This document shows, one piece after another, positions 659 through 61,492 of a stretch of DNA of 64,000 bases. Numbering within the stretch: the stretch's first letter is position 1; the number at the start of each line of letters is the position of its first letter. This stretch comes from a candidate division WOR-3 bacterium. Its GTDB lineage: Bacteria > Hydrothermota > Tepidihabitantia > B3-TA06. The stretch is taken from positions 8,626-72,625 of the forward strand of contig JAGMDF010000082.1 in assembly GCA_023128825.1 (NCBI GenBank), in the 5' to 3' direction. The notes below the pieces were generated by a model. That model was not told the DNA's origin. It saw only the letters and a list, made by a program, of their open reading frames with translations, and made no database searches. Position numbers and translations under genes: made by a program.

Positions 659-802
659 CGTATAAGTATAACGACTCTGACCCGGTCGTCAAGGGAACGA
701 TGCTCCTTTTCTCATGCGGAGACACTTGTGAACCGATAGGTTAAGAGATCGCAGCGCGATTCAATCACAGGACAGTTTACTCCGTGGTTCACGTGGGGTG
801 CA

Positions 803-10280: not shown

Positions 10281-10478
10281 AAGGACACCAGGATAAGAGC
10301 CGCAGGGTTAACCGTCAATGCCGAAAGTAGGGGGGACAGCGATGATGACTCTCGCAGGTCGCCATCCTTATGGTGCAGCTCCCTTACGGTCGCTACCCTT
10401 CGGACGAACCGCCGATTAGCTTTTTTAAGGAAGACTCTGGATCAGCTAGGAACGCCAATCCACTCTTAAGTGTAAAAT

Positions 10479-10522
10479 GGGGTCCCCGCGAGAATGCGAA
10501 GCAGGCTTGCGGGGTAAAAAAA
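10479..10522 (+). repeat. Family-B hairpin repeat, copy 1 (GGGGTCCCCGC-stem/loop-GCGGGGTAAAAAAA)
   Basis: GGGGTCCCCGCGAGAATGCGAAGCAGGCTTGCGGGGTAAAAAAA. Tandem with copy 2 at a 45-nt period. Confidence 0.8.
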
Positions 10523-10523
10523 C

Positions 10524-10566
10524 GGGGTCCCCGCAAGGAGGCGAAGCATCCTTGTGGGGTAAAAAA
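10524..10566 (+). repeat. Family-B hairpin repeat, copy 2; probable terminator of tRNA-Gln when read on the minus strand
   Basis: GGGGTCCCCGCAAGGAGGCGAAGCATCCTTGTGGGGTAAAAAA abuts the 3' end of tRNA-Gln. On the minus strand each hairpin is followed by a T-run. Confidence 0.75.
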
Positions 10567-14583: not shown

Positions 14584-14617
14584 CTGCAATCTTTTGTCCC
14601 CTGGACAAAAAGGAGCA
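14584..14617 (+). repeat. Family-A hairpin repeat (CTGCRATC-stem-loop-stem-GGAGCAT)
   Basis: CTGCAATC-TTTTGTCC-CCT-GGACAAAA-GGAGCAT. Confidence 0.75.
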
Positions 14618-14645
14618 TTCGATTTTTTTGGGGGCTTCGGGGGGG

Positions 14646-14673
14646 TTGACATCAAGATTTTGCGTCCTAATAT
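14646..14673 (+). promoter_or_regulatory. Promoter of fbp (TTGACA-16-TAATAT)
   Basis: TTGACA at 14646-14651 and TAATAT at 14668-14673. SD TAAGGAGGA precedes ATG 14726. Confidence 0.6.
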
Positions 14674-17458: not shown

Positions 17459-17495
17459 TGTAGGGGTACGGCATGCCGTGCCCCTAGATTTTTAT
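17459..17495 (+). repeat. Family-C REP-like hairpin (TGTAGGGGTACGGCATGCCGTGCCCCTA) with T-run; probable terminator
   Basis: The 28-nt core is identical to the copy at 19967-19994. The stem is GGGGTACGGC/GCCGTGCCCC and is followed by TTTTTAT. Confidence 0.7.
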
Positions 17496-17789: not shown

Positions 17790-19235
17790 ATGAATCCTCT
17801 TCAAAAAAGGTTGACCGCTCAAGCAATCAAGGCGGCAGTAAAAAACCCCGGCCTCGCCAGTACACTTCTAAAACCACTCAGGGCAAGAATCAAAAAGGGA
17901 ATTATGGATGCCCAACCCACGAACATACCCTACCTCACTGAAATAAAAACACAGTTTCTTGTGAATCTACTTGAGCAGTCTTTCAAAAACATCCAAAAGG
18001 GGTACTTTTCCACTGAGTATGCTGAAAGGGTACGCGAGACCTTTGTAATGAATGGGTTCCTCGACGAAAGGCGACCCAAAGTCCAGAAAAAGTACAAGGA
18101 TAAGTACGGAATAGAACCCCCCAGCTTCTGTTTGATCTCTCCCACCAAGCACTGCAACCTTAGATGCATAGGATGTTACGCGGCCTCGGAAGCAACTAGC
18201 GCAGCCACACTGGACTATGAGGTGTTCACCAAGCTGCTCCATGAGATGCGCGATCTGATCGGGTCGAACTTCATCGTGATCTCCGGCGGCGAGCCCTTTA
18301 TGTACAACTCCCAGGGCAAGACCCTGCTTGACGCCGTGGAAGAATTCTCCGACATGGTTTTCCTTGTTTACACCAACGGGACACTACTCACCGACGAAAC
18401 GGTGGAAAGGATGGCCGGACTGGGAAACATAACCCCGGCGATATCCGTTGAAGGCTACGAGAAAGAAACCGACGCAAGACGGGGAAAAGGCGTCTATGCG
18501 AAGATTATGGATTCAATGGAGAGGCTTAGACACCGCGGGGTTCCCTTCGGGACATCCGTTACCGCAACCAAGAACAACGTTGAAATCCTGCTGACCGACG
18601 AATTCTACGAGCACTACTTCGAGGAGCTGGGTGCGGTGTATATGTGGATGTTCCACCTGATGCCTATCGGAAGGGCCAGGGACACCATGGATCTGATGAT
18701 TTCTCCTGAGCAGCGCGTTGCGCTTTACAACCAGTGGGAAAGGATGCTCTTCGATAAGAAATACTTTGTCGGAGACTTCTGGAATAGTGGTGCGGCATCG
18801 GATGGCTGCATTGCCTATGGCAGAGAGAGGGGATACTTCTACGTCGACTGGAACGGGAACATCATGCCTTGCGGGTTCGTGCCATACTACAAAGACAATC
18901 TCTACGATCTTTACAGGGATGGTAAGTCAATCGCAGACGGGCTGATGTCGGATCTGTTTGTAAAGGGAAGGAACTGGCAGCACGAATACGGATACGGTCA
19001 ACTGAAGTTCTGTAATAATATACTTACCCCTTGCTCTATCCGCGACCACCACAAATACTTCAGGGAGAATATCCTGGACAACAGCGCGAAGCCTGAGGAT
19101 GAAAATGCAAAGGCAGCGCTCGAAGATCCTGAGTACTACGAGAGACTGGTGGAGTTCGATGAAGAACTTGAGAAGCTCACCCAACCCATCTGGCAGGAGC
19201 GCTACCTTAAAGACCTGAAACGAACCTCACGATGA
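17790..19235 (+). CDS. Radical SAM enzyme with an N-terminal extension of about 115 aa and a twitch/SPASM-like C-terminal Cys cluster
   Basis: CNLRCIGCYA (CxxxCxxC), VISGGEPFMY, YTNGTLLTDE. Downstream cysteines occur in DGCIAY...NIMPCGF and FCNNILTPCS. Confidence 0.85.
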   Translation: MNPLQKRLTAQAIKAAVKNPGLASTLLKPLRARIKKGIMDAQPTNIPYLTEIKTQFLVNLLEQSFKNIQKGYFSTEYAERVRETFVMNGFLDERRPKVQKKYKDKYGIEPPSFCLISPTKHCNLRCIGCYAASEATSAATLDYEVFTKLLHEMRDLIGSNFIVISGGEPFMYNSQGKTLLDAVEEFSDMVFLVYTNGTLLTDETVERMAGLGNITPAISVEGYEKETDARRGKGVYAKIMDSMERLRHRGVPFGTSVTATKNNVEILLTDEFYEHYFEELGAVYMWMFHLMPIGRARDTMDLMISPEQRVALYNQWERMLFDKKYFVGDFWNSGAASDGCIAYGRERGYFYVDWNGNIMPCGFVPYYKDNLYDLYRDGKSIADGLMSDLFVKGRNWQHEYGYGQLKFCNNILTPCSIRDHHKYFRENILDNSAKPEDENAKAALEDPEYYERLVEFDEELEKLTQPIWQERYLKDLKRTSR

Positions 19236-19310: not shown

Positions 19311-19913
19311 ATGTCTGAACGTTCGCCAAGAAAACCAGGAGAGATGCGCCGCCGTGAGATCCTTTCCGCGGCAAGAGAACTCTTTTGCGAATACGGCTTC
19401 GATCAAGTCGGTATGGAGGATGTGGCGAAGAAGGTAGGAATCTCAAAAGCGGCAATCTACTTCTACTACAAGAGTAAGCTTGAGCTTTTCATAGCGATGA
19501 TTAAATCATCACTTGACCAACTAGTGTCGGATCTCAAGGCTGACCTTAAGGATGAATCGAAAAAAGGCATTAAAAACCGCCTTGATGCGGTACTCCACTC
19601 GCTCAGCCGGTATGTCCCTCTGATTTCAAGCATGCGCAGGCTTTTCGAAACCGGAGGAATTCCAGTCGTTCCTGCACGCCACATGACGCTCTTTACGAAA
19701 CGCATCACTCCCAGCATCGAGGAGGTAAAAGAGGTGCTGGCATCTGTTTTCTTCAGTGCACAGAAGACAGGTGAGGTAAGAAAAAATCTAACTCCCCAAA
19801 CGCTGGCAAATGTTTTTCTGGGGCTTGCGTCTTCGCTGGCTGGAATCGAGACGGGCTTCGCGACAGTGAGAGAGATTTTCCTTAAAGGAATCCTCGTAGA
19901 GGAGGCAGGGTAA
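19311..19913 (+). CDS. TetR/AcrR-family transcriptional regulator
   Basis: N-terminal HTH: RRREILSAARELFCEYGFDQVGMEDVAKKVGISKAAIYFYYKSKLELF. Confidence 0.9.
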   Translation: MSERSPRKPGEMRRREILSAARELFCEYGFDQVGMEDVAKKVGISKAAIYFYYKSKLELFIAMIKSSLDQLVSDLKADLKDESKKGIKNRLDAVLHSLSRYVPLISSMRRLFETGGIPVVPARHMTLFTKRITPSIEEVKEVLASVFFSAQKTGEVRKNLTPQTLANVFLGLASSLAGIETGFATVREIFLKGILVEEAG

Positions 19914-19966: not shown

Positions 19967-20003
19967 TGTAGGGGTACGGCATGCCGTGCCCCTACTTTTA
20001 TTG
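19967..20003 (+). repeat. Family-C REP-like hairpin, second copy; probable terminator
   Basis: TGTAGGGGTACGGCATGCCGTGCCCCTA followed by CTTTTATT. Same orientation as the copy at 17459. Confidence 0.7.
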
Positions 20004-21866: not shown

Positions 21867-21898
21867 CTGCGATCCTTTGCCCGTGGGGCAAGGAGCAT
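21867..21898 (+). repeat. Family-A hairpin repeat
   Basis: CTGCGATC-CTTTGCCC-GTG-GGGCAAG-GAGCAT. Confidence 0.7.
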
Positions 21899-21929
21899 TT
21901 ATTTCGGAGCCATCGACTGAGGTGGATGT

Positions 21930-21957
21930 TTGACTTCCAATTGTTTCGCACTATAAT
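21930..21957 (+). promoter_or_regulatory. Promoter of rpmH operon (TTGACT-16-TATAAT)
   Basis: TTGACT at 21930-21935 and TATAAT at 21952-21957. Confidence 0.65.
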
Positions 21958-42830: not shown

Positions 42831-42840
42831 TATGATCGTT

Positions 42841-42922
42841 GCCGGGGTGGTGAAATTGGCAGACACGTACGTTTGAGGGGCGTATGGGTAACTCCGTGCG
42901 GGTTCAAGTCCCGCCCCCGGCA
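42841..42922 (+). tRNA. tRNA-Leu (anticodon GAG)
   Basis: Class II tRNA: acceptor GCCGGGG/CCCCGGC, anticodon arm TACGT-TTGAGGG-GCGTA, long variable arm, T arm GCGGG-TTCAAGT-CCCGC. Confidence 0.9.
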
Positions 42923-42972
42923 TTAAATCCTCCTTTCGTCCTGCGGACAAAAGATCGGAAAAAGATTTATTG

Positions 42973-43003
42973 AAGAGCTGGTAACGTCAGCTCTTTCGTT
43001 TTT
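42973..43003. terminator. Bidirectional hairpin terminator
   Basis: AAGAGCTG-GTAACGT-CAGCTCTT with T-runs on both strands. It lies between tRNA-Leu (+) and the minus-strand operon that ends at 43042. Confidence 0.6.
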
Positions 43004-43037
43004 CTGCGATCTTTCCTGCGTGGCAGGAAAGGAGCAT
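43004..43037 (+). repeat. Family-A hairpin repeat, 4 nt from the stop codon of the minus-strand gene
   Basis: CTGCGATC-TTTCCTGC-GTG-GCAGGAAA-GGAGCAT. Confidence 0.75.
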
Positions 43038-43041
43038 AAAT

Positions 43042-43413
43042 TTAGTAACCGAGGCGGCGCAGCTCGGCATCGGACAGCCCGAAGAAGTGGCCTATCTCGT
43101 GAAGAACCACACGGCGCAGGAGCGTCTTGATCTCGGAAGGTGCACTGGCGTAGCGCTCAATCAGAGATTTGTAGATAACGATCCGATCCGGCCAAAGACC
43201 GTAACCCGTTGCCCCTCTCCGACGAAGCGGAACGCCGTGGTAGAAACCCAGAACCCGACCACCCATAAACGAGGGCGGATCCGCGGCATCAGGGTAATCC
43301 TTGACCGCGATAACGATGTTGCGCTCGTCTAAAGCCTGCTTGAATTTTGCCGGCAGTCCCTCAATCGTCTCCCTCACGATCCGCTCGAACTCCTCGCGAC
43401 CAAGCTTGCTCAT
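43042..43413 (-). CDS. Small zincin-like metallopeptidase family protein (HExxH)
   Basis: Start set at ATG 43413, which overlaps the xerD stop. VVLHEIGHFFGLSDAEL carries the HExxH motif. The layout resembles the DUF1025/Zincin_1 family. Confidence 0.75.
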   Translation of the reverse strand: MSKLGREEFERIVRETIEGLPAKFKQALDERNIVIAVKDYPDAADPPSFMGGRVLGFYHGVPLRRRGATGYGLWPDRIVIYKSLIERYASAPSEIKTLLRRVVLHEIGHFFGLSDAELRRLGY

Positions 43414-52338: not shown

Positions 52339-52376
52339 TACCCCACGCCGTCACTACATGACGCCGCGGGGACCCC
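52339..52376 (-). repeat. Family-B hairpin repeat (minus orientation)
   Basis: The minus strand reads GGGGTCCCCGCGGCGTCATGTAGTGACGGCGTGGGGTA, close to the copy at 61013. Confidence 0.7.
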
Positions 52377-52382
52377 GACTTA

Positions 52383-52414
52383 ACGCTCCTTTTTGCATAC
52401 GCAAAAAGATCGCG
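52383..52414 (-). repeat. Family-A hairpin repeat (minus orientation, variant flank ACGCTCC)
   Basis: The plus strand reads ACGCTCC-TTTTTGC-ATAC-GCAAAAA-GATCGCG. Confidence 0.65.
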
Positions 52415-52537
52415 ATTTAATACACCTCTATTCAAAAGGTGACTCATCTTATCCCTCCCCCTCCCACACACAGCATGAGAGACCACTCCTGCTATAAATT
52501 AAGGGGACGGCCACAGCCGCCCCCTTAAGATTTCTCT

Positions 52538-52571
52538 CTGCGACCTTTCTCCCCATGGGAGAAAGGAGCAT
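52538..52571 (+). repeat. Family-A hairpin repeat, 2 nt from the stop codon of the PorV-like gene
   Basis: CTGCGACC-TTTCTCCC-CAT-GGGAGAAA-GGAGCAT. Confidence 0.75.
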
Positions 52572-52573
52572 TT

Positions 52574-53656
52574 TTAAAACGCTATTCCCAGCGAAGCGCG
52601 ATGAACCGGCGCTAAATACCAGTGCCACTCGAAGCTGTAGTCAACCGCTACGTCGTAGCTTCCGACAGGTATCTTGACGCCAAGCCCTGCCGAGGGGCCG
52701 CGGGTGTTGCGGTTAGAAAGCACTTCACGAGCAATAGTGGCGGCATCAACGGATGTGGTGCCTTCTTCGTCGTCTCCAAAATCGGGTGCGGTGTTGAGAC
52801 CTAAACCCAGGCGCAAGAAAAGCGTCTCGTTGAGCCCATACTCCAGGCCGATGGCACCCTTGGCAGGCTGGTCCGATATATGAGCGAAATCCGCTGTCAT
52901 GGTAAGACGTGAGGGGGGACCTTCAATAAGGTCTATGGCCACACCGCCAGCAAATGTGAAGGGCATGTGGAAAGGTTCGGATTTGTAGGTGGACGGTATG
53001 TCCTCGGTCTGAAGGGTATCCTTTCTGGTGTTGAAGATGAGACCTTCACCTTTGTATGCCATGTCCGGACCGAAGTGCTGCACCACGAATCCCAACCTGA
53101 AGTTGCGTATCCCGACGTTATAGGTAGCACCGACATCAACCGCGAATCCCCAGGCGGCAACTCGATGCAGGGTAAGGTCGATGGCTTTAAGGGTGACACC
53201 CGCCGAGAACTTTTCAGTCATCTTGCGTCCATAGGATATACCCACCGCGTAGTTGTTGGCCATGTAGTAGTTACCCGTACCGTCTTGATCATCGTAGGTC
53301 GTGATTTCAATCGGGCCGGAAAGGTGCGCGAGAACCTGAAAACCTAACGCGTCGAGTTCGCTTAAGGGAACTCCGAGTGCAAGATTCTCTTCAAGCATGC
53401 CGGCAAAGAGGATCGCCTGCCCGAAGGTCCCGGCTATCCTGTCCATATTAGCTATCCCGGCCGGGTTCCAGAATAAAGCGTCCGGTCCGTCGGCCAAGGC
53501 GGTATAGGCACACCCCATAGCTATGGGGCGGGCACCGCCGCCCATCGTAAGGAAGGACACGGAGGCACCGGACCCACCCAGACGTGCCGAAAGCGGCGTC
53601 GCGATCACCGCCAGGGCCAGGATGCTGAGGACAAGGAGTCTTCTACTCGTCTTCAT
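52574..53656 (-). CDS. PorV/PorQ-family outer-membrane beta-barrel
   Basis: Signal MKTSRRLLVLSILALAVIATPLSA. Signature GGGARPIAMGCAYTALADGPDALFWNPAGIANM. Terminal aromatic residue (GIAF). Confidence 0.75.
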   Translation of the reverse strand: MKTSRRLLVLSILALAVIATPLSARLGGSGASVSFLTMGGGARPIAMGCAYTALADGPDALFWNPAGIANMDRIAGTFGQAILFAGMLEENLALGVPLSELDALGFQVLAHLSGPIEITTYDDQDGTGNYYMANNYAVGISYGRKMTEKFSAGVTLKAIDLTLHRVAAWGFAVDVGATYNVGIRNFRLGFVVQHFGPDMAYKGEGLIFNTRKDTLQTEDIPSTYKSEPFHMPFTFAGGVAIDLIEGPPSRLTMTADFAHISDQPAKGAIGLEYGLNETLFLRLGLGLNTAPDFGDDEEGTTSVDAATIAREVLSNRNTRGPSAGLGVKIPVGSYDVAVDYSFEWHWYLAPVHRASLGIAF

Positions 53657-60514: not shown

Positions 60515-60850
60515 GTTAAACCTCCTAGCTCTAGCTGGATGGGTTTTTCAACATAACTCTATGTGAACTGGGGTCGGAATACTCCGATTACAAAGAATTG
60601 ACGCACCTCCTTTTCTTTCGTGGGAATTCACACTTTGACATTCACTCATAATAACCGTCCGTTTTTGCAGGCCGCCCTAGAAAGCCCAACATTAACTCAT
60701 CTGCTCAAGAGGGTTACACGGGGAGACAATCCAACTCCTTCGTGTATACCTTCGTATTTGAGTATAGGTTTCTTTCCTGACTTGTCAAGTGGTAGGAAAT
60801 CTGTGCGCCAGGAGATCATTGCCAGGGGGTGGGCCTACATTTAACAAACC

Positions 60851-60901
60851 GTGTGGAACGGGCTCTCTAGCCCGTTCTTTTATATTATGCACAGGCTGGA
60901 G
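60851..60901 (+). repeat. Family-D direct repeat, copy 1 (about 52 nt, contains a terminator-like hairpin)
   Basis: GTGTGGAACGGGCTCTCTAGCCCGTTCTTTTATATTATGCACAGGCTGGAG. Hairpin GAACGGGC-TCTCTA-GCCCGTTC followed by TTTTAT. Confidence 0.8.
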
Positions 60902-60962
60902 CACCCGACGGGGGTACACTGGTATGGAGTGCGACAACGCGGTTGTCGCACTCCAAAGTTAT

Positions 60963-60997
60963 ATGCTCCTTTTTACCTGGCGGTAAAAAGATCGCAG
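60963..60997 (-). repeat. Family-A hairpin repeat (minus orientation)
   Basis: The plus strand reads ATGCTCC-TTTTTACC-TGGC-GGTAAAAA-GATCGCAG. Confidence 0.75.
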
Positions 60998-61012
60998 TAT
61001 AGAACTGTCCTA

Positions 61013-61053
61013 GGGGTCCCCGCGGCGTTACGAAGTAACGGCGTGGGGTAAAG
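61013..61053 (+). repeat. Family-B hairpin repeat
   Basis: GGGGTCCCCGCGGCGTTACGAAGTAACGGCGTGGGGTAAAG. Confidence 0.7.
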
Positions 61054-61094
61054 TTACACCTCCCCCTTGACGGGGGAGAGTAGGGAGGGGGATT

Positions 61095-61132
61095 GTCATT
61101 GCGAGCGAACGAAGTGAGCGAAGCAATCTCGT
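61095..61132 (-). repeat. Family-E repeat
   Basis: The plus strand reads GTCATTGCGAGCGAACGAAGTGAGCGAAGCAATCTCGT. The minus strand reads GAGATTGCTTCGCTCACTTCGTTCGCTCGCAATGAC. Confidence 0.6.
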
Positions 61133-61241
61133 AAAGATGACAAAGGCGTCTCAGTCATTATGAGGAGCGAGTGTTCGTGACGAGCGACATGACACCGAAG
61201 GACGACGCTTGCGGAGTAATCTCATTCTGCAAGGCGGTGCT

Positions 61242-61297
61242 ATGAGATCGCCACACTTCCCCGCCTCTTACGAGGCGGACGGTCGGTCGCGATGACA
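61242..61297 (+). repeat. Family-E repeat
   Basis: ATGAGATCGCCACACTTCCCCGCCTCTTACGAGGCGGACGGTCGGTCGCGATGACA, with internal hairpin CCGCCTC-TTAC-GAGGCGG. Confidence 0.6.
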
Positions 61298-61361
61298 TTT
61301 AATCTTCCCCTCCCCTGGTGGGAGGGGTCGGAGACGAAGTCGACGGGGGAAGGGGAAACAT

Positions 61362-61395
61362 ATGCTCCTTTTCGCCTGTGGCGAAAAGATCGCAG
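61362..61395 (-). repeat. Family-A hairpin repeat (minus orientation)
   Basis: The plus strand reads ATGCTCC-TTTTCGCC-TGT-GGCGAAAA-GATCGCAG. Confidence 0.75.
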
Positions 61396-61440
61396 AGAAA
61401 GAATCGGTACATTCCCTTCGGGAATAGCTAGCGGCCCCGC

Positions 61441-61492
61441 GTGTGGAACGGGCTCTCTAGCCCGTTCTTTTATGATTATCCACAGGCTGGAG
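61441..61492 (+). repeat. Family-D direct repeat, copy 2
   Basis: GTGTGGAACGGGCTCTCTAGCCCGTTCTTTTATGATTATCCACAGGCTGGAG. It differs from copy 1 by one indel and one substitution. Confidence 0.8.

Follow-up and report, generated by a model that had tools for sequence, protein, structure and literature searches.

The 64,000-nt window analysed here, from contig JAGMDF010000082.1 of a candidate division WOR-3 bacterium, carries dispersed copies of a short palindromic element, family A, which a sequence-only reading had singled out by its conserved flanks around a stem of varying sequence. We put it at about an even chance that family A is a lineage-specific, short interspersed palindromic element akin to the repetitive extragenic palindromic (REP) repeats, of a non-GTAG type, whose hairpin is maintained on one strand and which is seldom copied. 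As far as a literature search shows, it has not been described previously. The window holds eight intact copies and a broken one (700-754). The pattern CTGCRAYC-N15-25-GGAGCRT has six exact matches, at 14584, 21867, 43004 and 52538 on the plus strand and at 60963 and 61362 on the minus strand, against 0.01 obtained from shuffles. Together with a copy of diverged flanks (TCGCGATC...GGAGCGT, 52383-52415 on the minus strand) these are the seven copies listed by the sequence-only reading, all of them correctly placed; an eighth intact copy at 42927-42960 on the minus strand had been overlooked. A covariance model (R1) seeded with 64 distinct family-A copies assigns 32–60 bits (E 5e-14 to 3e-6) to the eight intact copies, and a scan of the window with it gave nothing convincing beyond them. 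The copies are 32–35 nt long in the window and 33–38 nt in most related sequences, and the genes that flank the window copies are unrelated housekeeping genes.

All the copies folded adopt the same shape, with the consensus CTGCGATCTTTT..AAAAGGAGCAT(TTA). A 3-bp outer helix, formed between a TGC in the 5' flank and a GCA in the 3' flank, is followed by a fixed internal loop (GA unpaired on the 5' side, A on the 3' side) and by an inner helix of 9–11 bp with a fixed base composed of T·G, C-G and TTTT/AAAA. The TC of the 5' side is thus paired with GG, the T·G pair being a wobble that is present in 139 of 144 distinct copies. The top 2–4 pairs of the inner helix and the loop of 3–4 nt vary with compensatory changes, hypervariability being confined to the top two stem pairs, each of which occurs as 5–6 standard pair types. 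Stem length varies as well, and whole elements of 33, 34, 35 and 36 nt are represented by 11, 62, 18 and 21 copies, respectively. The stems had been listed as differing among copies and yet remaining complementary, and this holds beyond the window. The covariation score reaches 0.339 on the 64 distinct copies, against 0.086 when shuffled and at most 0.088 with partners slid, and 0.287 against 0.067 on 144 distinct copies, where 98% of the cells are paired, a percentage that is partly built in because the seed set was chosen for paired stems. The outer helix and the pair types lie outside that selection. The outer helix shows compensation: the 52383 copy has CGC/GCG and the 42927 copy has TCC/GGA, and among the 144 distinct copies the middle pair is G-C 134 times and C-G 7 times. 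That the hairpin is structurally constrained and its flanks conserved, as had been proposed, is therefore borne out by the covariation on both sets. The flanks had also been described as nearly invariant and single-stranded; they are indeed conserved, but they are not simply single-stranded, since TGC and GCA pair and covary and TC pairs with GG.

The hairpin carries a clear strand signature. On the strand that reads from CTGCGATC to GGAGCAT (the forward strand) 42 copies have a G-N-A triloop (GAA 22, GCA 10, GTA 7, GGA 3), against 6 with the T-N-C that the complement would show as such a loop (TTC 2, TGC 1, TAC 0, TCC 3), and the loop is closed by a C-G pair in 114 of 138 copies. Of 119 copies compared, 108 are predicted to be stabler on the forward strand when RNA parameters are used, and 106 when DNA parameters are used. 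In the copies adjacent to stop codons (see below) the mRNA contains the complementary, weaker strand, so that the loop signature tracks the element and not the transcript. A folded single strand, as had been proposed, is supported by the nearly invariant T·G wobble, the G-N-A asymmetry and the stabler forward strand in about 90% of the copies. The canonical terminators nearby have mostly four-base loops (e.g. GAAA, GCAA), and the hairpins of a second repeat family, family B, have GCGAAGC tips. Loops of the cGNAg type and d(GCGAAGC) are extraordinarily stable DNA mini-hairpins, a property reported by Hirao and co-workers and associated with the SantaLucia triloop bonuses. Most family-A tips resemble them in being C-G-closed G-N-A triloops; these mini-hairpins are however a thermodynamic motif rather than a family of elements. 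The likeness suggests folding at the DNA level without proving it. Because cGNAg triloops mark stable DNA mini-hairpins and the signature is independent of the direction of transcription, the family-A element probably folds as single-stranded DNA.

A collection of species-representative genomes was scanned with a 21-base version of the pattern and returned more than 94 stretches. Except for two, these came from seven genomes carrying the label candidate division WOR-3 or Candidatus Stahlbacteria, and the two outside matches (Pseudomonas and Lachnospiraceae) are about what the pattern would yield by chance. The covariance model finds 163 matches in 0.66 Mb from the seven genomes. A metagenome scan added 120 further stretches, and a stricter regular expression then gave 361 family-A copies in 1.58 Mb overall, to which the metagenome contigs contribute about 200. 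The window is 89–98% identical to some of the contigs carrying family A and about 80% identical to others, and hence derives from a genome related to theirs (related contigs are cited below by their L numbers). In Rfam only the transfer RNAs (tRNAs) of the window reach threshold, and a permissive search gave at most 14 bits on the family-A element. One copy lies on a contig classified as viral (L096 5023-5058, IMGVR_UViG_3300024429_000021), which could be host DNA at the edge of a provirus or a phage of the WOR-3 lineage; a phage link for family A was rejected, only this copy on one such contig having been found.

Similarity between copies ends at the edges of the 34-nt core, and a genome hardly ever contains two identical copies; the copies must therefore be old and diverse. 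Flank identity decays immediately outside the core, which excludes a larger mobile unit. A miniature inverted-repeat transposable element was likewise rejected, similarity being confined to the core, where a unit of 50–500 bp with terminal inverted repeats and a target-site duplication would be expected, and a possible 4-nt TTCT repeat being found in one pair of filled and empty sites and in no other. Compensatory change in place is seen at orthologous copies: the 43004 copy has a double change with respect to its L061 orthologue (TTTTCTGC/GCAGAAAA), the 21867 copy differs from those of L073 and L040 (TTTTCGCC/GGCGAAAA), and the same occurs between L084 and L012. The fixed parts are only modestly better conserved in place than the flanks (95% versus 85–93%, in the alignable pairs). 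At one site that is filled in L084 and empty in L012, a gain is represented by an extra 43 nt after a hairpin and TTTCT, with the possible TTCT repeat, and the gained copy has the stem of a neighbouring copy. Sharing of tips between neighbouring copies, as expected from local hopping, is not significant as a whole (P = 0.33), single cases apart. Syntenic intergenic regions of different species were concordant for family A in about 22 cases and discordant in about 11. In high-identity comparisons the element was missing in 8 of 195; one of these is a deletion between CTCCTTT microhomologies, and in the others a mosaic of repeats has been rearranged in a complex way. As a source of clean empty sites among close relatives, the metagenome scan was therefore discounted. 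REPIN populations (REP doublets forming hairpins) also comprise old, diverse copies with slow, mostly vertical dynamics (bioRxiv 10.1101/2021.07.10.451892), and by our comparison the turnover of family A appears to fit such a dynamic, unlike that of an active transposon or of a strictly fixed regulatory site.

The genomic context was analysed with genes called by a home-made codon-bias caller, a crude tool that is adequate for strands and gene ends. Four of 149 family-A copies fall inside called genes, and nearly all are intergenic, with 42 copies in tandem regions in sense orientation, 38 in tandem regions in antisense, 31 in the 59 convergent regions and 13 in the 53 divergent ones. In tandem regions of the independent metagenome set there were 38 sense and 28 antisense copies, so that orientation relative to transcription (80 versus 66 in the two sets together) is unbiased, and both orientations are about equally common overall. 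No bias of orientation was found with respect to GC skew, AT skew or the coding strand. The position of the two ends is a different matter. In 23 of 67 cases the GGAGCAT end is found at -1 to +4 nt relative to the stop of the gene that is read toward it, against 2.2 expected from uniform placement within the spacer (P < 5e-5), whereas the CTGCGATC end is equally near a stop in 1 of 69. In the metagenome set the corresponding values are 32 of 86 (3.6 expected) and 2 of 95. The distances of 4 nt (stop at 43042) and 2 nt (stop at 52574) that the sequence-only reading had given for two window copies are thus correct and generalise to both sets. The abutted stops are genuine and varied (TAA, TAG and TGA, at offsets between -1 and +4). 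At two unrelated tRNA genes the GGAGCAT end is 3–4 nt from the 3' end, and since the spacing is the same, the effect concerns gene 3' ends generally and not translation.

Beyond the GGAGCAT end the flank is A/T-rich (TTAAWT, with about 37% T in the first 8 nt), and a TTGACA -35 box lies 4–12 nt from this end in 11 of 143 copies. The CTGCGATC end is preceded by a pyrimidine- or T-rich tract; for 29 of the 139 copies considered, a GC-rich hairpin ends within 14 nt upstream of it, with a T-rich tail in 16. Outward-facing inverted pairs around a terminator, with different stems in the paired copies, form a symmetric module whose order is gene, stop, complementary-strand copy, bidirectional terminator, forward copy, stop and gene. 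Such modules are seen in the window (copies 42927/43004, spanning 42927-43037, with tRNA-Leu on one side), in L004/L035 and in L061. In a few genes (L011 ~2270, L017 ~6700, L041 and L055) an ATG follows GGAGCAT or GGAGCAC by 2–7 nt, and the GGAG, half buried in the foot of the hairpin, is likely their Shine-Dalgarno site; callers of open reading frames (ORFs) stretch these genes upstream through the element. Other candidate functions were tried and discarded. A short coding sequence opening with the complementary-strand ATG (stop-ATGCTCC...) would be thrown out of frame across the hairpin by element lengths of 33–36 nt, and the adjacency is also seen at tRNA genes. The TTA flank of the element does not supply the stops, given their variety and offsets. 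A sigma-54 promoter, suggested by TGG..N..GCA in some copies, was rejected because the spacing changes with stem length (12, 11 or 10 nt from start to start, and not a fixed GG-N10-GC). Finally, no tandem G·A arrangement compatible with a kink-turn fits either strand.

Family A shares many features with REP repeats, bacterial interspersed mosaic elements and REPINs (PMC3733652, PMC2817692, bioRxiv 10.1101/2021.07.10.451892). It is an imperfect palindrome of 20–40 bp, extragenic and lineage-specific, with some 100 or more copies per Mb; it favours tandem and convergent spacers, as reported for REPs, which prefer tandem and convergent regions over divergent ones (PMC3733652); it lies close to stop codons; it occurs in mosaic clusters and inverted pairs; and it persists vertically with a low rate of duplication. 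The sequence-only reading had set its covarying stems apart from sequence-identical REP copies. This contrast does not hold, because the GTAG REPs and the GGGGTCCCC hairpins of the same genomes likewise combine fixed bases with variable compensated stems, and family A behaves as they do. It differs from REPs in having two conserved, non-symmetric flanks that form an outer helix across a fixed internal loop and in the strictly one-sided adjacency to gene 3' ends. It differs from REPINs in that the stems of the inverted pairs are unrelated, and therefore no long hairpin of the REPIN type can form.

A RAYT homologue (REP-associated tyrosine transposase) in a sister genome adds to this likeness. 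A search of all ORFs in 0.73 Mb with E. coli RayT revealed one RAYT-like ORF in these partly sampled genomes (L082 4252-4770, minus strand, 172 aa, with an HIH motif), which matches E. coli RayT with E = 2e-9 and Pfam Y1_Tnp (PF01797) with 35.4 bits, above the curated cut-off. The repeats adjoining it are of the GTAG type and not family A, and a direct repeat, GTGTAGCGCGGGCTCTCAGCCCGCG[A/T]ATAATCT, is found on both sides of the gene (L082 4237-4807), giving a REPtron-like unit in a Stahlbacteria genome. GTAG repeats headed by GTAGGGGC with a variable hairpin (e.g. TGTAGGGGTACGGCATGCCGTGCCCCTA) number 75 in 0.65 Mb and form a family separate from A. An ordinary REP-RAYT system is thus present in the WOR-3 lineage, and family A appears to be distinct from it, as the RAYT-like gene comes with GTAG repeats of its own, although a second RAYT gene may lie outside the sampled part of the genomes. 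Two GTAG repeats in the window (17459-17491 and 19967-19999) bracket a 2.67-kb segment with two genes (17790-19235 and 19311-19913) that is missing from the 89%-identical contig L019; the difference is possibly an insertion or deletion mediated by these repeats.

If family A is indeed such a REP-like element, it would be maintained as a hairpin on one specific strand, would be copied rarely by a structure-specific enzyme acting in trans or by local replication-based duplication, and would otherwise be inherited vertically like REP and REPIN populations. Effects on the host, as a hairpin right after the stop in the mRNA, an occasional Shine-Dalgarno site or a spacer between terminator and promoter, would be secondary. 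The one-sided contact with gene ends might reflect an insertion preference beside the T-tracts of terminators combined with compaction of the spacer, or a secondary function. Several observations weigh against this interpretation. The two known REP superfamilies are defined by GTAG and CGTC tags (PMC3733652), and a check of the family-A consensus shows neither GTAG/CTAC nor CGTC/GACG. On either side of the RAYT-like gene lies GTAGCGCGGGCTCTCAGCCCGCG, a REP of the classical GTAG-plus-hairpin kind, and the genes flanked by family-A copies are ordinary, none being transposase-like. There is one reasonably clean gain, and no consistent target-site duplication was found. The case for folding as single-stranded DNA draws on known loop stabilities, and mismatches in the stems, with 10 G·T versus 10 A·C, give no strand signal. 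The tight, one-sided adjacency to 3' ends (23/67 and 32/86, with 2–4 expected) is not predicted by random insertion and selection, and therefore an insertion preference or a function is needed.

Such a function could reside in the RNA, although we think this improbable. The hairpin following a gene (stop or 3' end, AUGCUCC-hairpin-GAUCGCAG, then terminator) would keep 3'-5' exonucleases away from the stop and the coding sequence, act as a signal for processing or delay the ribosome at termination; the last effect is said to have been described for REPs near stops in E. coli, in work by Liang, Rudd and Deutscher from 2015. The enrichment within 4 nt of stops in both sets is what this explanation would predict, and the variety of the stops, none supplied by the element, the two independent tRNA genes with the same spacing, the strong covariation of the hairpin and the symmetric modules, where each convergent transcript would have its own copy before the shared terminator, all fit it. 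However, the transcript would contain the less stable strand, with an A·C mismatch in place of T·G and with UNC loops; in tandem regions one copy in two is oriented the other way and then never abuts a stop; many copies are 4–12 nt upstream of a -35 box and hence probably outside transcripts; the adjacency to tRNA ends speaks against a role linked to the ribosome; and no Rfam family matches. A purely RNA-level hairpin of the 3' untranslated region, as the sequence-only reading had envisaged it, accordingly fits poorly with the balanced orientation (80 versus 66), the weaker strand in the mRNA, the many copies upstream of promoters and the tRNA neighbours.

Termination offers another function, and one that we consider unlikely. 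Family A resembles intrinsic terminators in that a stable hairpin with A/T-rich sequence on its 3' side lies at gene ends, often next to a canonical terminator and shortly before the following promoter. It differs from them in that the 5' arm has the T-run and the 3' arm the A-run, in its conserved flanks and in the absence of a real U-tract. That most copies are intrinsic terminators was rejected, since only the 52538 copy out of eight in the window passes a simple scan. A one-way back-up terminator or insulator is a separate proposal, in which the hairpin transcribed in the forward direction, with its A/U-rich tail, would stop polymerase that has read past the canonical terminator before it enters a convergent gene or tRNA in antisense or reaches the following promoter, the conserved flanks being perhaps recognised by a factor specific to the lineage. 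This accounts for the polarity at once, as the well-folding strand would be the transcribed one, its 5' end following terminator T-tracts (29/139, 16 of them T-tailed) and its 3' end abutting opposing stops, tRNA 3' ends and -35 boxes, with TTAAWT downstream and one window copy recognised by the scan. Against it stand the single success among eight window copies, a tail with about 37% T and no U-tract, a stem base that is rich in A-U and broken by the internal loop, flanks that an ordinary terminator does not need and the location of about 40% of the copies where forward transcription is unexpected (the <E< and <E> classes). In the same vein, and with as little likelihood in our estimate, family A may be a polar boundary module read by a lineage-specific factor, a new, sequence-specific kind of one-way transcription insulator or fail-safe terminator at the edges of WOR-3 transcription units, whose well-folding strand would always point from the terminator toward the shielded feature (an opposing stop or tRNA 3' end, or the next -35 box). 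Least probable is a site bound by protein in duplex DNA, e.g. a protein that also recognises phased arrays of TGG[AT]CAAAAG. In its favour, GGNNAAAAG is present in both arms as an inverted repeat, the motif recurs in arrays of 3–7 tandem 11-nt units at 12 loci or more, and orientation shows no preference relative to transcription or to proxies of replication; yet a duplex site leaves unexplained why the two NN positions are complementary (98% paired, 5–6 pair types) and why the loops are asymmetric, and the two conserved flanks are not symmetric.

The sub-terminal hairpins of IS200/IS605 insertion sequences are recognised as folded single-stranded DNA by HUH Y1 transposases. Family A shares with them strand-specific features and a shape that is kept more than the stem sequence, and the conserved nucleotides at the hairpin foot could be recognition or cleavage sites. 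It differs in being a single hairpin without cargo, fixed target tetranucleotide or orientation bias relative to replication proxies, and without an associated transposase among the flanked genes. On the REP-like reading, family A would be a third kind of REP-like repeat, with neither tag and with a distinctive two-helix foot, in a phylum that had no cultured member until recently. It joins other cases without a known transposase, such as the CGTC REPs, and bears on how these repeats are made and kept. While the kind of element is familiar, its polarity is striking: the replicated adjacency, with about one third of the relevant cases within 4 nt of a gene 3' end, gives a handle on insertion preference versus a function at transcript ends. 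In practice, the covariance model allows family-A sites to be masked or marked in WOR-3 genomes, where they appear to break contigs and give rise to spurious ORFs and wrongly called starts and where the element supplies a ribosome-binding site to a few genes.

Table. Family-A copies and associated features in the window, with repeat families found at other loci (promoter-like sites are consensus matches only).
Feature	Position	Strand	Sequence	Score and context
Disrupted family-A copy	700..754	-	CTGCGATCT + 23 unrelated nt + TCTC-CGCAT-GAGAAAAGGAGCAT	9.5 bits, E 3.2; 5' arm lost or interrupted; predicted fold without the family-type hairpin
Family-A copy	14584..14618	+	CTGCAATC-TTTTGTCC-CCT-GGACAAAAA-GGAGCAT	36.8 bits; between Fe-ADH-like gene (stop 14482) and FBPase gene promoter; loop differs in L019 orthologue
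Promoter-like site	14646..14673	+	TTGACA-N16-TAATAT	27 nt past the 14584 copy; kept in L019
Family-A copy, short stem	21867..21898	+	CTGCGATC-CTTTGCCC-GTG-GGGCAAG-GAGCAT	38.5 bits; upstream of promoter-like site 21930-21957
Promoter-like site	21930..21957	+	TTGACT-N16-TATAAT	31 nt past the 21867 copy; ahead of yidC; kept in L073, L040
tRNA-Leu(GAG)	42840..42923	+		3' end abutted by the 42927 copy
Family-A copy overlooked earlier	42927..42960	-	TTCCGATC-TTTTGTCC-GCA-GGACGAAA-GGAGGAT	55.9 bits; GGAGGAT end 3 nt from tRNA-Leu 3' end; same variant adjoins tRNA-Leu in L061
Terminator-like hairpin	42972..42996	+	GAAGAGCTGG-TAA-CGTCAGCTCTTT then CGTTTTT	flanked by two outward-facing family-A copies
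Family-A copy	43004..43037	+	CTGCGATC-TTTCCTGC-GTG-GCAGGAAA-GGAGCAT	56.8 bits; CTGCGATC end directly after T-tract of hairpin 42972-42996; GGAGCAT end 4 nt from stop of minus-strand Zincin_1 gene (43042-43635)
Diverged family-A copy	52383..52415	-	TCGCGATC-TTTTTGC-GTAT-GCAAAAA-GGAGCGT	31.8 bits
Family-A copy	52538..52571	+	CTGCGACC-TTTCTCCC-CAT-GGGAGAAA-GGAGCAT	52.8 bits; GC-rich hairpin with T-rich tail just upstream; GGAGCAT end 2 nt from stop of minus-strand gene 52574-53656
Family-A copy	60963..60997	-	CTGCGATC-TTTTTACC-GCCA-GGTAAAAA-GGAGCAT	48.1 bits; inside 1.1-kb non-coding stretch 60515-61600; orthologue in L081
Family-A copy	61362..61395	-	CTGCGATC-TTTTCGCC-ACA-GGCGAAAA-GGAGCAT	60.1 bits, best in the window; identical copy in L081
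Family-B hairpins	10474-10518, 10519-10563, 61008-61052, ~52341-52376			many other loci
11-nt arrays	L002 5541, L010 6480, L015 717, L034 26 and 1209, L058 3537, L072 7025			others

Family A forms mosaics with the GTAG REPs, the family-B hairpins and the 11-nt arrays. Family B consists of GGGGTCCCC, a variable stem, often with the GCGAAGC tip, and GGGGT; of 143 family-A copies, 25 are followed by such a hairpin, which begins 4–9 nt past GGAGCAT and always has the same orientation. The presence of family-B hairpins varies between orthologous sites (none at window position 21900, one in L073 and L040). The tandem arrays, with 3–7 units of TGG[AT]CAAAAGN usually following an A-run, occur at 12 or more intergenic loci. 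Their unit resembles one arm of family A (GGNNAAAAG), and the 11-nt phasing, equal to one helical turn, suggests curved DNA or an iteron-like protein array.

Other arrangements were seen in and around the same repeats. In the gene-free stretch 60515-61600 of the window an exact 34-nt repeat, CGTGTGGAACGGGCTCTCTAGCCCGTTCTTTTAT, occurs at 60850-60883 and 61440-61473; it forms a terminator-like hairpin with a T-tract on the plus strand, and each repeat is about 45–80 nt from a family-A copy. A gene-free mosaic of 1.3 kb (L003 4200-5500), located between an Mg-chelatase-like gene (ComM/YifB-type) and a tRNA, contains four family-A copies and a composite of several repeat families, about 200 nt long, that is duplicated 693 nt apart. 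At the end of another contig (L060 2833-3436) two family-A copies are placed in tandem 6 nt apart, and copies with identical stems flank a gene of 119 aa with a weak, sub-threshold Pfam match to Replic_Relax. As contigs often end in these repeats, they seem to break assemblies.

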